Made by a program: the position numbers and the translations under genes. Shown piece by piece: positions 3,280 through 12,660 of a stretch of 12,660 nucleotides of DNA; the stretch's first letter is position 1, and each line of letters opens with the position of its first letter. This DNA comes from a virus (Duplodnaviria; Heunggongvirae; Uroviricota; Caudoviricetes). The notes below the pieces were generated by a model. The model worked only from the letters and a program-made list of their open reading frames with translations, did not search any database and was not told the origin of the DNA. Where the stretch lies: the IMG/VR virus record IMGVR_UViG_2896601577_000006. One strand, 5' to 3'.

Positions 3280-3301
3280 TGGCGACAAAATGGCGGCAGC
3301 G
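3280..3301. repeat. putative prophage att core, ogr-proximal copy (direct repeat of 12621-12642)
   Basis: TGGCGACAAAaTGGCGGCAGCG matches 12621-12642 at 21/22 positions in direct orientation; it ends one base before the ogr stop codon. Confidence 0.55.
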
Positions 3302-3520
3302 TCAAAGAGAGAGCGCCACCTGTCCTGATTTCATTGGATGCGGCTGAACCGGATTTGACTCTTTTGGCGTTGCAATCGAACGAACAAAAGTTTCATGGGT
3401 AACAAAAGTATGGCTGCAGTTAATGTTCTGGCACTGGTTGTAACGCTCTTTGGTCAATGAAGATACCTGAAAACTGCTGCGAGTATGGGCGGCACTTCCA
3501 CACAGTGGGCAAATCATCAT
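3302..3520 (-). CDS. ogr: Ogr/Delta-family zinc-finger late transcription activator
   Basis: 72-aa product MMICPLCGSAAHTRSS...TKERYNQCQNINCSHTF with C-x2-C...C-x4-C zinc finger, aligning with P2 Ogr (MFHCPLC...KERYHQCQNVNC). GGGGAG RBS upstream of ATG 3520. The ORF-track start at 3553 is an upstream extension. Confidence 0.9.
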   Translation of the reverse strand: MMICPLCGSAAHTRSSFQVSSLTKERYNQCQNINCSHTFVTHETFVRSIATPKESNPVQPHPMKSGQVALSL

Positions 3521-3610
3521 TTTTCGAGTTCTCCCCATTTTTGCTAAATTCACAATAATGATACCGCATTATTCCATTTTGCAAGCTTAAAAGTTCTCCA
3601 TTGCGAAGAA

Positions 3611-4711
3611 TCATTCCATTTCGAAATCATCAATCCTCACTTCAAGCTCCAGACTGGTCGTAAAACCGTTATCCGGGCTGACAGTATGCGTCAGAGTCGT
3701 AATGGTCCATTCCGCATCATCTATCGGCTGTTTAAAGCCACTGACCTTCACAGGCATTTCTGTGTAGAGATCTGCCCGCCCTTCCGCCAGTTGTAGCGAG
3801 AATGATGCAACGCCGCGTTGCAGGAGTTCCCACTGCATTTTCGCTGCCCGTTCGGCGTTGCTCCGGTTGGCATAAGTGCGATTAAGTACCAGCACGTTTT
3901 CATCCGTACCCACCAGGTAATCGCCCTGCTTCGCTTCCGGCTCTTTCTTCTGCTTCTTAGTCCTGCGCTTACGCTTCACCGTGGTGCTTTCTTTCTTCGC
4001 GGGTTCGCGGGTATGCAACCAGCTGGCAATGACGCCCGTGTAAGCTCCGCGATCTGCCAGGGTAAAGCGGTGACTGTCGCCGTCCTTGCGTGTGATAGTG
4101 ATCACCGGTAGTGGTTTACCGCTGGCGCTTTTACCCTGCCCCTGCCGGATGAATAACAGATTGCCATTTTTCACCGACGCAATAGCACCGTACTGGCGCG
4201 CCAGCCGCATCAAAAAACTGCCGTCACTCTCATTAGTCTGGTCTATATGCTCCACGAGTTTATCCGACAAGTCTTCACCCAATGCCATCTTCAGTTTGTG
4301 CCGCGCAGCTATTTCCTTCACCACTTCCCCAACGGTGGTCTTGTGCCACGACTTTTCACGGCGGGTATTCAGCGTTTCACGAAAATCAGCACTTCGCGCC
4401 CGGATAGTCAGGCGATCCGGTGCGCCAGTGTGTTCAATCTCGTCCACCGTGAATGCCCCTTTCGGGAAAAGCGGCTGTCCCTTCCAGCCCAGCGCCAGCG
4501 TAATGACAGCCCCACGGCGCGGCAGCACGATTTTTCCATCGGCGTCGTCCAGCTCCAGATCAAGCTGGTCCGCTTCAAAGCCCCGGTTATCCGTCAGCGT
4601 CAGCCCCATCAGGCGGTTGTCCAGCACAGTGGTGATATCCCTGCCTTCAATACTGATGCTGAATGCCGGAGTTTTGTTGCCTTTGTTAAGCAGTTCAGAG
4701 CTGAAATTCAC
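3611..4711 (-). CDS. D: P2 gpD-like tail protein (late control gene D family)
   Basis: 366-aa ORF at the P2 position between U and ogr; start ATG overlaps the U stop (ATGA). Confidence 0.9.
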   Translation of the reverse strand: MNFSSELLNKGNKTPAFSISIEGRDITTVLDNRLMGLTLTDNRGFEADQLDLELDDADGKIVLPRRGAVITLALGWKGQPLFPKGAFTVDEIEHTGAPDRLTIRARSADFRETLNTRREKSWHKTTVGEVVKEIAARHKLKMALGEDLSDKLVEHIDQTNESDGSFLMRLARQYGAIASVKNGNLLFIRQGQGKSASGKPLPVITITRKDGDSHRFTLADRGAYTGVIASWLHTREPAKKESTTVKRKRRTKKQKKEPEAKQGDYLVGTDENVLVLNRTYANRSNAERAAKMQWELLQRGVASFSLQLAEGRADLYTEMPVKVSGFKQPIDDAEWTITTLTHTVSPDNGFTTSLELEVRIDDFEME

Positions 4712-5193
4712 GACAGCAGCCCTCCCACCGTTTTACTGATATCGCTTAAGGCAGATGTTGCCGTTCCCTGCAGATTATTCAGTTGCGCACTGAGATCACC
4801 GAACATATCGGACAGGGATTCATCCACGCGTTTTAGCGACAGGGTGAACTCAATCCGGCGCGGCATACCGTCGCGGAAAAACTCCGTTTTAGTCTGATTC
4901 AGTCCCTCAATCACATACATGCCGTAAATCGTGCCGCTGCCTTCAATCAGGGGCCATGCTTTTCCCTGTTCTGCCATCTGCTCCAGAGCCAGCAACGACA
5001 GCCTGCCGCCCGTTACCTCCGGCATAAGAACACCAGAAAGCGTCAGCATGTCGTTGTCCGGTCCCAGAAACTGCGTTGACGGGCGTCGGTTTACCCGGCT
5101 GTTTGCCGCATGTCGCCAGCTGCGTTGATACTGCAGCTCCTGATACGGCACGGTGCGCAGCATAAACACGTACAATCCCAGCACCATCATCAT
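4708..5193 (-). CDS. U: P2 gpU-like tail protein
   Basis: 161-aa ORF beginning MMMVLGLYVFMLRTVPYQ, in the P2 gene order T-U-D; ATGA overlap with D. Confidence 0.9.
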   Translation of the reverse strand: MMMVLGLYVFMLRTVPYQELQYQRSWRHAANSRVNRRPSTQFLGPDNDMLTLSGVLMPEVTGGRLSLLALEQMAEQGKAWPLIEGSGTIYGMYVIEGLNQTKTEFFRDGMPRRIEFTLSLKRVDESLSDMFGDLSAQLNNLQGTATSALSDISKTVGGLLS

Positions 5194-10930: not shown

Positions 10931-11206
10931 TTACCGACTGCGGCCTGAGTTTTTTAAGTGACGTAAAATCGTGTTGAGGCTAACGCCCATAATGCGTGCA
11001 GTTGCCCGGCATCCAACGCCATTCATGGCCATATCAATAATTTTCTGGTGCGTACCGGGTTGAGAAGCGGTGTAAGTGAACTGCAGTTGCCATGTTTTAC
11101 GGCAGTGAGAGCAGAGATAGCGCTGATGTCCGGCAGTGCTTTTGCCGTTACGCACCACCCCGTCAGTAGCTGAACAGGAGGGACAGCTGATAGAAACAGA
11201 AGCCAC
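10931..11206 (-). CDS. insA: IS1 InsA
   Basis: 91-aa [46 protein letters not shown]..., a zinc-finger/HTH protein. Confidence 0.9.
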
Positions 11207-11554
11207 TGGAGCACCTCAAAAACACCATCATACACTAAATCAGTAAGTTGGCAGCATCACCGCTCTTTGTTATTAAGCCCACTAACTACCTATGCTAAAA
11301 ATTATCCTTGTTCTGGGAAAAAGGGAGGTGTCTCTCACTGTACCTCCGATGGAAAATTTGTTTGCAATGATGGAACTATTAGTAAATTCAAAAAAATCTG
11401 TACTAAAAACTCACGATAACTTTTGCTTTTATATCTGCGTCTAAAATAAAAATGAGCCGCAGGTTAACCGCAAAAGTTACATGCTCACATAGCAAAAAGA
11501 ATAGCCAACTTCATTATGGCTTCAGTGAGATGTATGGTCGTAGGATTTCATACA

Positions 11555-11583
11555 TTGACACTGGTTATACATACAGTAAAAAT
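11555..11583 (+). promoter_or_regulatory. candidate sigma70 promoter upstream of int
   Basis: Consensus -35 TTGACA (11555-11560), 17-nt spacer, AAAAAT -10-like hexamer (11578-11583); GGAGG RBS at 11594-11598 precedes ATG 11608. Confidence 0.3.
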
Positions 11584-11607
11584 ACTCTCTACTGGAGGGC
11601 ATTTTTT

Positions 11608-12660
11608 ATGGCAGTACGAAAACTCACCACTGGGAAATGGCTTTGCGAATGTTACCCCGCCGGACGAAGTGGGCGTCGTGTGCGTAAACAATTCGCCACC
11701 AAAGGCGAAGCACTGGCTTTTGAGCGCCACACGATGGAAGAAACCGAAGCAAAGCCCTGGCTGGGTGAATCAGTGAATCGTCGAACACTGAAAGACGTGG
11801 TTGAGCTATGGTTCAAACTACATGGTAAATCTCTGACAGCTGGGCAGCATGTCTATGACAAATTGCTGTTGATGGTTGACGCTCTGGGCAATCCTCTTGC
11901 AACCGATCTCACCTCTAAAATGTTTGCCCACTATCGAGATAAACGCCTGACAGGCGAGATCTACTTCAGCGAGAAATGGAAGAAAGGAGCAAGCCCGGTC
12001 ACCATTAACCTGGAGCAAAGCTATCTAAGTAGTGTTTTTAGCGAACTATCCCGTCTGGGCGAATGGTCGTATCCGAACCCACTGGAGAACATGCGAAAAT
12101 TCACCATCGCAGAAAAAGAGATGGCATGGCTTACCCATGAGCAGATTGTTGAATTGCTGGCTGATTGCAAACGTCAGGACCCAATTCTGGCACTGGTAGT
12201 TAAGATATGCTTAAGCACAGGCGCACGCTAGCGTGAAGCCGTAAATCTTACCCGCTCACAGGTGACCAAATACCGAATTACCTTTGTCAGAACGAAGGGG
12301 AAGAAAAACAGAAGCATCCCTATCAGTAAAGAGCTTTACGAAGAGATCATGGCGCTTGATGGGTTCAATTTCTTCACAGACTGCTATTTTCAATTTTTAT
12401 CCGTGATGGAAAAAACGTCTATCGTGCTCCCTCGCGGTCAACTCACACACGTTCTGCGCCATACGTTTGCGGCGCACTTCATGATGTCGGGTGGAAACAT
12501 TCTGGCCTTACAAAAAATTCTCGGACACCACGATATAAAAATGACTATGCGTTACGCACATCTGGCACCGGATCATCTGGAAACGGCGCTCCGTTTCAAT
12601 CCTCTGGCAACGCTGCCAAGTGGCGACAAAGTGGCGGCAGCGGTTGGCATTACCCCGTAA
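11608..12660 (+). pseudogene. int: P2-family tyrosine integrase interrupted by a single in-frame amber codon
   Basis: MAVRKLTTGKWLCECYPAGRSGRRVRKQFATKGEALAFE... aligns with P2 Int. The frame is continuous from 11608 to TAA 12658-12660 except for TAG at 12229-12231 (ICLSTGAR*REA, where homologues have W). The downstream part keeps HVLRHTFA and RYAHL catalytic motifs. ORF-track pieces are 11452..12231 and 12262..12660. Confidence 0.85.
12621..12642. repeat. putative prophage att core, int-proximal copy (direct repeat of 3280-3301)
   Basis: TGGCGACAAAgTGGCGGCAGCG, 21/22 identical to 3280-3301, lying within the last 13 codons of int. Confidence 0.55.

Follow-up and report, generated by a model that had tools for sequence, protein, structure and literature searches.

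Does a prophage remnant whose tail genes are still full length keep them because they are useful, or has too little time passed since the rest of the phage was lost for them to decay? The question is raised by a stretch of 12,660 nucleotides (hereafter the window) from the IMG/VR virus record IMGVR_UViG_2896601577_000006 (Caudoviricetes), in which the late-gene activator gene ogr and a tail operon of the kind found in phage P2 are separated from an integrase gene (int) by one insertion sequence (IS), IS1. The initial annotation took the DNA between two 22-bp repeats for a minimal P2-like prophage stump, and left two explanations for its intact genes: a recent deletion, or retention for a reason. 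On the evidence set out below, we hold it to be very probable that the stump is an immobilised remnant of a Felsduovirus-type P2-like prophage integrated at the small RNA gene rybB, and that its reading frames are intact as a result of the short time elapsed and not of selection. Our verdict is one of neutral, recent, IS-driven decay in a prophage family that has already been described.

The window is 100% identical to part of the Shigella boydii chromosome CP026867.1, and NCBI and UniRef give Shigella boydii as the source of its D, FI and truncated Int proteins. At least 80% of it is found in one place in 629 of 5,426 complete E. coli genomes. E. coli UPEC-245U (NZ_CP049845.1) holds a full-length prophage of 34 kb at the same site, with nucleotide identities to the window of 99.8% over positions 1-10493 and 99.7% over positions 11262-12660. 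The prophage that lies between rcdA and ybjL in E. coli CFT073 is 95.2% identical in nucleotide sequence over ogr-FI; it has been published as phiECO3, which has a 186-type switch and is assigned to the Fels-2 group (PMC3448106), and also as phi-b0847 (PMC3573123). P2 itself (AF063097) stands further off, its proteins being 35-55% identical to those of the window and its nucleotide sequence about 68% identical. The name P2-like (Peduoviridae) is accordingly apt for the gene order and the gene families, that is, in a broad sense; at a finer level the element belongs, as a decayed remnant, to the Fels-2/Felsduovirus phi-b0847 group, whose switch is of the 186 type. The gene rybB is known as the integration site of these prophages ('Rybb'; PMC3032704, PMC10121019) and as a hotspot occupied only by Felsduovirus phages, which are integrated there in 109 E. 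coli genomes (PMC10121019), and defective 'Rybb*' prophages have been listed for E. coli B, W and Crooks (PMC3032704). The phage family, its attachment site, its defective versions and P2 stumps that bear ogr are thus all in the literature, and the same stump is already present in public S. boydii genomes; it is not a new system.

The site of integration can be fixed to the base. Window positions 1-3237 are host DNA with ybjC, grxA, ybjM, ybjL and the RybB small RNA gene (3146-3224, plus strand; Rfam RF00110, 105.3 bits where the gathering score is 40, over all 79 model positions), and a tRNA scan of the window found no tRNA gene. Comparison with the empty site of a K-12 derivative (locus L017), which reads ATGGGTTTTTTGTTATCTAAAACTTAT, places the true left boundary of the prophage at an attL core, ATGGGTTTTTTGTTGTCTGAAATTTAT, at 3211-3237: homology of the left flank to the empty site ends at 3237, and homology of the right flank restarts at a second copy of the core, attR, about 75 bp past the window end (position 11128 of locus L013). 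The core consists of ATGGGTTTTTTGTT plus 13 similar bases, and its invariant 14 bp are the last 14 nucleotides of RybB, identical in attL and attR. The prophage is therefore found at the 3' end of rybB with the core repeated at both junctions, the second copy standing in the same chromosome, and the position of the core agrees with the published limits of phiECO3 in CFT073. The core overlaps the terminator stem and U-tail of RybB, which is left unchanged by integration, as with phages that target tRNA genes.

The two 22-bp direct repeats by which the initial annotation had bounded the element are present at 3280-3301 and 12621-12642 (both on the plus strand), and 21 of their 22 positions match, but they are not its ends, since attL lies outside the first of them and attR outside the window. 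As candidate attL and attR they failed: an artificial 'empty site' assembled from them could be aligned in one piece to no E. coli genome (coverage at most 65%), and it was this failure that led to the search that gave the true core. Each repeat holds two tandem 11-bp units that match the published consensus of 186-type Int arm sites, tgccGCCActt (PMC3448106). Read as reverse complements, the ogr-side repeat is TGCCGCCATTT followed by TGTCGCCA, and the int-side repeat is TGCCGCCACTT, an exact match to the consensus, followed by TGTCGCCA. The repeat motif TGGCGRC-N4-TGGCGRC has only these two sites in the window, against a chance expectation of 0.06, and none of 200 shuffles reached two. The ogr-side repeat sits 42 bp inside the core and the int-side repeat 92 bp inside it, before the attR core; the former keeps the same distance from the core in five relatives, some of which have a different int 3' end, and the latter is also kept in relatives whose int 3' end differs. 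The layout mirrors the annotated arm-core-arm sites (P and P') of P2 attP in AF063097. We conclude that the repeats are putative Int arm-binding sites within the phage DNA and not prophage ends, and they serve as an example that short repeats near the ends of a prophage need not be att cores but can be arm sites. Just past the window end, the DNA from the int stop to the attR core (L013 11060-11127) contains CTAACTTATTGTTTT twice in tandem, together with a short stem-loop, CCCGTTTACATAAATGGG; these may be sites for integration host factor or for an excisionase of the Apl/Cox type, and a phage-supplied terminator stem, respectively.

Inside these limits the phage DNA begins with the end of the late region. 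Pfam and PHROG identify eight products in P2 order, the tail operon FI-FII-E-E'-T-U-D and then ogr, and, read from the other end, the order ogr-D-U-T-E/E'-FII-FI, then IS1, then int, given by the initial annotation is confirmed. All eight are on the minus strand. The activator gene ogr (3302-3520; 72 amino acids (aa); Pfam Ogr_Delta, E=5e-22) is intact, identical to that of UPEC-245U and 51% identical to P2 Ogr. It is followed by D, the baseplate hub or late control protein (3611-4711; 366 aa; Phage_GPD), which is intact, differs from UPEC-245U by R296L and is 55% identical to P2 gpD, and by U (4708-5193; 161 aa; Phage_P2_GpU, E=2.6e-44), also intact and identical to its UPEC-245U counterpart. 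The tape-measure gene T (5190-8265) is split, as sequenced, into open reading frames (ORFs) of 183 and 906 aa. The tail assembly chaperone E (8392-8694; 100 aa; Phage_TAC_7) is intact and identical to UPEC-245U, and the E' frame (8258-8377), called as Phage_P2_GpE in relatives and differing from UPEC-245U by Y28D, would extend it to E+E' by a -1 frameshift: a predicted slippery site, TTTTTTG, is present within E at 8437-8431, and downstream of it the E' frame stays open. The tail tube gene FII (8749-9264; 171 aa; Phage_tube, E=8.8e-60) is intact and identical to UPEC-245U; the tail sheath gene FI (9274-10446; 390 aa; Phage_sheath_1, Phage_sheath_1C and Gp18_domIII_N) is intact and differs by S70L, a change seen in the window genome only. 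The reported full length of D, U, E, FII, FI and ogr thus stands, with zero or one residue of difference each from the UPEC-245U orthologues. In one stump carrier (locus L009) the ogr stop is lost (TGA to TGG at the equivalent of window position 3302), giving a product of 87 aa.

A sheath, a tube, a tape measure, chaperones, gpU, the hub gpD and an activator, all present and intact, might suggest a functional minimal contractile device (a tailocin, or one like an extracellular contractile injection system), or a satellite dependent on a helper phage for the parts it lacks. We give this next to no chance. Pfam and PHROG find in the window no gene for the spike (V), the baseplate wedge (W, J, I), the fibres (H, G) or tail completion (R, S), and neither a holin nor an endolysin gene for lysis; no late promoter is left; Int is truncated and there is no cos or packaging function; and the content is simply a contiguous end segment, 99.8% identical, of a normal phage genome. 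As head, replication and immunity genes are missing too, no particle or tailocin would be possible, as the initial annotation had said from the absence of baseplate, spike and fibre genes. Measured against published criteria for a complete, non-cryptic genome (structural genes, transcriptional switch, integrase, attL and attR; PMC3448106), the element lacks its switch, replication, head, lysis, baseplate and fibre genes and has a stop at codon 208 of int (W208*), so the region is a remnant of a member of the rybB group and not a functional member. From this gene content the stump is predicted to be unable to replicate, lyse the cell or assemble a tail.

The tail genes are joined to int at an IS1-associated deletion. 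Upstream of FI, 47 bp of its leader remain (10447-10493, minus strand), and the Ogr box of the late promoter P_F, which lay just beyond, is gone. An apparently intact IS1 of 768 bp follows at the deletion junction (10494-11261, minus strand), with terminal inverted repeats of about 23 bp, insA, an open insB' and the A6C frameshift motif; it is 98.2-98.4% identical to annotated E. coli IS1 copies. On its other side stands the 3' fragment of a small ydcA-like gene, cut at the IS1 junction (11262-11419, plus strand), which aligns from base 35 of a 192-bp coding sequence of UPEC-245U and is called as a 50-aa PF27300 product in relatives. No target-site duplication of 8-9 bp is present at the IS1, the flanking 9-mers GTTGAAGTG and GCTCTTTGT being different, and the structure is therefore attributed to an IS-mediated deletion or to recombination between two IS1 copies, and not to simple insertion. 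Adjacent deletion and recombination between copies are both established behaviours of IS1. Set against the full-length prophage of UPEC-245U at the same site, a synteny comparison that had been proposed at the outset, the window lacks 25,467 bp, or 37 annotated coding sequences and the first 34 bp of a 38th, the ydcA-like gene; the absence of 20 or more genes between FI and int, as first reported, is confirmed. Lost are the invertase, fibres, baseplate, spike, tail completion, lysis, head, terminase and replication genes and the CI/CII/Apl switch; no form more reduced than that of the window was seen.

Both IS1 junctions recur without any base change in 10 further loci that were retrieved; these come from nine independent assemblies besides the window genome and include CP026762.1, CP026866.1, CP026872.1, CP049281.1, CP001063.1 and the draft AMKC01; each junction is also found singly at contig ends of other short-read drafts. 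A search for the stump junctions in the 5,426 complete E. coli genomes returned only matches to IS1 ends, so that the stump is absent from them, and one in the GTDB representative genomes gave no match. Over 8.8 kb, carriers of the stump are separated by about four substitutions at the most, which supports the view, also that of the initial annotation, that the deletion is recent.

Could the stump be an assembly artefact, with the missing 25 kb contiguous here or elsewhere in the genome? The assembly does have homopolymer errors, and a contig type from 14 short-read assemblies (L008; Logan ERR182094_114), which differs from stump carriers by only 0-2 substitutions over 16.9 kb, runs from FI into invertase and tail-fibre-assembly DNA. 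L008, however, ends in a different IS1 junction, identical to that of the remnant typified by S. boydii Sb227 (CP000036.1), in which IS1 stands in place of the baseplate and fibre genes, and so represents a different real structure. An IS1 of 768 bp is easily spanned by long reads, and the same two junctions, with no base of difference, stand in CP049281.1, in CP001063.1 and in four PacBio chromosomes that a single project produced; independent short-read drafts have them where their contigs end. An artefact is highly unlikely; because both junctions recur exactly in independent assemblies, misassembly of the stump is excluded for practical purposes. An origin of the window's IS1 from the Sb227-type IS1 through two adjacent deletions was also considered and rejected, as at least one base distinguishes the ends of the two IS1 copies.

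The homopolymer errors themselves concern the split of T. The window has three 1-bp deletions, at 5202 and 7737 in T and at 1084 in ybjM, all of them contractions of runs of five or six C (in T, from six to five), and it contains no run of G or C of six or more. When the two bases are restored, T becomes an uninterrupted frame of 1025 aa. Illumina drafts and further complete genomes that carry this stump likewise have a T of 1025 aa, and a YbjM of 125 aa. Deletions in G/C homopolymers are scattered over host genes, differ among the four PacBio genomes of the lineage and are absent from short-read drafts. We considered whether the T and ybjM frameshifts might be real decay and rejected this on the same grounds: they are homopolymer contractions, variable among PacBio assemblies and missing from the drafts, and are probably PacBio assembly errors. 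The lesson is that G/C-homopolymer frameshifts in older PacBio assemblies should not be counted as pseudogenisation. Further contractions of this kind occur in flanking host genes, at the L013 equivalents of window positions 16783, 21069 and 21944. In the right flank, truncations of yliI vary among the Shigella loci of the lineage and may likewise be assembly errors; mdfA is annotated with 321-358 aa, where 410 aa are expected, throughout the Shigella loci of the lineage, short-read drafts included, and may be a real pseudogene.

The survival of int, counted among the retained genes in the initial annotation, holds only for its DNA. The gene (11608-12660, plus strand; a tyrosine integrase of 350 codons) is a nonsense pseudogene, a fact that had been overlooked: TGG has become TAG at 12229-12231 (W208*), and Pfam Int_N and Phage_integrase are matched on two separate pieces. 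The stop falls directly after the first catalytic arginine (GAR*), so that the set R...K...H-x-x-R...H/W...Y of an active tyrosine integrase is not found in one product, and the rest of the catalytic domain is encoded only in a separate downstream ORF. W208* is present in every stump carrier, short-read drafts included, and the stop is therefore real. It is also present in larger Shigella remnants that have decayed in other ways, which suggests that the int stop predates the deletion in the window. With Int truncated and the Apl/Cox-like and CI/CII genes gone, the remnant would not be excised. A truncated Int with D57 in place of N57 occurs in 186 blocks of the contig index, beside quite different remnants. 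Among related prophages, two int variants use the same att site, one of 1053 bp with the arm site in its 3' end and one of 1032 bp accompanied by a separate 270-bp ORF; the arm-site DNA is kept in both (L004 and L018 compared with the window).

These larger remnants show how varied the erosion has been. CP026807.1 has a near-full-length prophage riddled with IS1, IS3-family and IS66 elements that carries W208*; in CP026834.1 the prophage is split by a rearrangement and the truncated Int has D57; the Sb227-type remnant has the E' allele of the window lineage, as does CP162053.1, in which an IS3-family element lies inside FII. Either W208* or the E' allele marks at least five decay states in genomes of S. 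boydii and S. dysenteriae (loci L020-L029 and L030-L039); these include IS1, IS3-family, IS4 and IS66 insertions and a rearrangement that places the early region beside ybgS/aroG. Two E. coli strains have independent internal deletions at the same site: in HL15 (L001) from mid-FI to mid-cII without an IS, and in WCHEC050613 (L004), associated with IS1, from mid-FII to a DUF5347 gene.

A history in four steps would account for these structures. Int would first have integrated the phage into the 3' end of rybB, between ybjL and rcdA, as the att junctions attest. The W208* mutation would then have trapped the prophage in the ancestor of these Shigella lineages; the mutation and its sharing are seen directly, and its being first is what we infer from them. 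IS elements would have invaded the trapped prophage, the Shigella lineages losing different parts, as the decay states above illustrate. Last would have come the IS1-associated loss of 25.5 kb, with one end 47 bp ahead of FI and the other 34 bp into the ydcA-like gene next to int, its observed junctions being presumably produced by IS1 adjacent deletion or by recombination between two IS1 copies.

Whether selection has kept what this deletion spared can be judged in part from the promoter of the tail genes. In the full-length prophage a dyad, TTGTGTG-N-CACACAA, has its centre some 85 bp before the FI start codon, on the far side of the IS1 junction. (In the prophage part of locus L002, TTGT-N12-ACAA has three sites only, all of them intergenic: upstream of FI, upstream of V and in the divergent region between O and P.) No Ogr-responsive late promoter, that is, a TGT-N12-ACA dyad near -55, was found in the window, nor was a sigma-70-like promoter detected at the IS1 junction. 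The FI-D operon has thus lost both the Ogr-binding dyad and the -35 region of P_F. As the transposase genes of IS1 face the same direction as FI, transcription of FI-D could possibly occur, at most, by weak read-through from IS1. The activator gene ogr, whose own upstream region is preserved, may be expressed even now, but within the stump it would have nothing left to activate. Among stump carriers, the variable coding changes (D R296L, FI S70L, FII A135V and the ogr stop-loss, against one synonymous change) form a pattern opposite to that of purifying selection, small as the numbers are (4 versus 1). So few changes have accumulated since the deletion that ORFs would be expected to be intact without any selection.

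Several observations nevertheless weigh against neutral decay along this path. No credible disruption of ogr, D, U, E, FII or FI was found in any stump carrier, and T is intact where the sequencing is good; such frames are compatible with selection, but they carry no weight, as only about 1-2 substitutions are expected in 7.2 kb at the observed divergence. When FI-D was deleted from the intact prophage of CFT073, zebrafish embryos were killed more slowly (PMC3573123), which makes a host-level effect of these genes possible. The proposed order, the int stop first and the IS1 deletion later, depends on sharing across lineages that lack a clean phylogeny. Finally, L008 has the derived alleles of the stump carriers at 3585, 1724, 3042 and 3825 (compared with L006, L031 and L033), and with these stump-clade single-nucleotide polymorphisms it has the Sb227-type structure (FI-invertase-tfa-IS1), in conflict with a single irreversible deletion on a clonal tree. 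The likeliest source of the conflict is homologous recombination between S. boydii lineages, which would have moved either the deletion or its flanking alleles. L008 was also considered as a second prophage or a chimera and was rejected as such, since its end coincides with the IS1 junction of the Sb227 type and its sequence matches that structure at 100% identity.

The selective reading would have ogr and FI-D kept as a domesticated module, either for virulence or because Ogr, made constitutively, acts in trans on incoming P2-like phages or P4-like satellites. In its favour, good-quality assemblies show ogr and all seven tail genes undamaged in each stump carrier, ogr-D-U-T-E is retained in three further independent remnants, and the CFT073 mutant is attenuated. 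The loss of cI could moreover leave ogr constitutively on: in phage 186, CI represses B, the ogr homologue, and the cryptic ogr genes of E. coli K-12 and B were reportedly found functional by Slettan et al. in 1992. Against this stand the deletion of the operon's Ogr-dependent promoter with no sigma-70-like replacement, a divergence at which intact frames are expected anyway, and an excess of non-synonymous or stop-loss changes (four to one); in addition, the Shigella relative L039 has an IS3-family element inside FII, and E. coli B has lost FI to D' at the same site. Of the parallel remnants, HL15 and WCHEC050613 were found with a query that contained the module and are a biased sample, and the remnants at the rybB site are individual counter-examples and not a population survey. 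Survival of ogr in both HL15 and WCHEC050613 is explained by its position as the last gene before the att core and rybB. Selection for ogr and FI-D is in our judgement very improbable, and the more specific proposal of a beneficial module in Shigella boydii and related lineages (Ogr freed from CI that mistimes P2-like late genes or triggers resident P4-like satellites, or an effect on virulence) very doubtful. If true, it would add a domesticated orphan late activator or tail module affecting phage-satellite interplay or virulence. The suggestion that the genes are 'retained for a reason' is thus set aside in favour of neutral and recent decay, a reading under which the locus matters little for discovery and is a clean worked example of an Int-defective prophage eroding through IS activity in Shigella.

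Comparison with known elements places the stump among its relatives. With the phiECO1, phiECO2 and phiECO3 (phi-b0847) group it shares the rcdA-ybjL site, the core over the rybB 3' end, the gene order and the 186-type arm sites; the members of that group are complete phages of about 33-34 kb with an intact int, whereas the window has about 8.6 kb of phage DNA, an IS1 at the deletion point and a nonsense int. P2 has the same order FI-FII-E-E'-T-U-D-ogr, the same attP layout (ogr, arm site, core, and an arm site inside the int 3' end), an E/E' slippery site and, as in the window's full-length relative, a TGT-N12-ACA late-promoter dyad, but beyond the low protein identity given above it differs in its arm consensus (tgTGGaCa versus the 186 type), its switch (C/Cox versus the CI/CII/Apl type) and its attB. 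Other Shigella remnants share the E' allele (Sb227 and CP026807.1), W208* (CP026807.1 and S. dysenteriae 225-75), the site and the IS-driven erosion; Sb227, CP026807.1 and 225-75 differ in keeping far more, head, lysis and early genes included, and in having other IS1, IS3-family and IS66 junctions.

Two further remnants have been described in E. coli. The ogr-D' stump of K-12 at cyaR (ogrK / yegZ; PMC3032704) is likewise a minimal, att-proximal piece of a P2-family prophage with ogr, but it lies at another att site, belongs to another P2 subgroup and is far shorter, with only a fragment of D, no sheath, tube and tape-measure module and no int. The 'Rybb*' prophages of E. coli B, W and Crooks (PMC3032704) are defective, of the same family and at the same rybB site, and retain ogr. 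That of E. coli B REL606 (NC_012967.1, 880.6-904.7 kb; L040) differs in having lost its capsid and lysis genes and the stretch from FI through most of D, and in keeping the baseplate, fibres, early genes, int and a retron, so that its content is roughly the reciprocal of that of the window. In this prophage a fragment of the invertase gene is fused to a C-terminal fragment of D, with FI-FII-E-T-U gone, and the retron lies between the early and the head genes.

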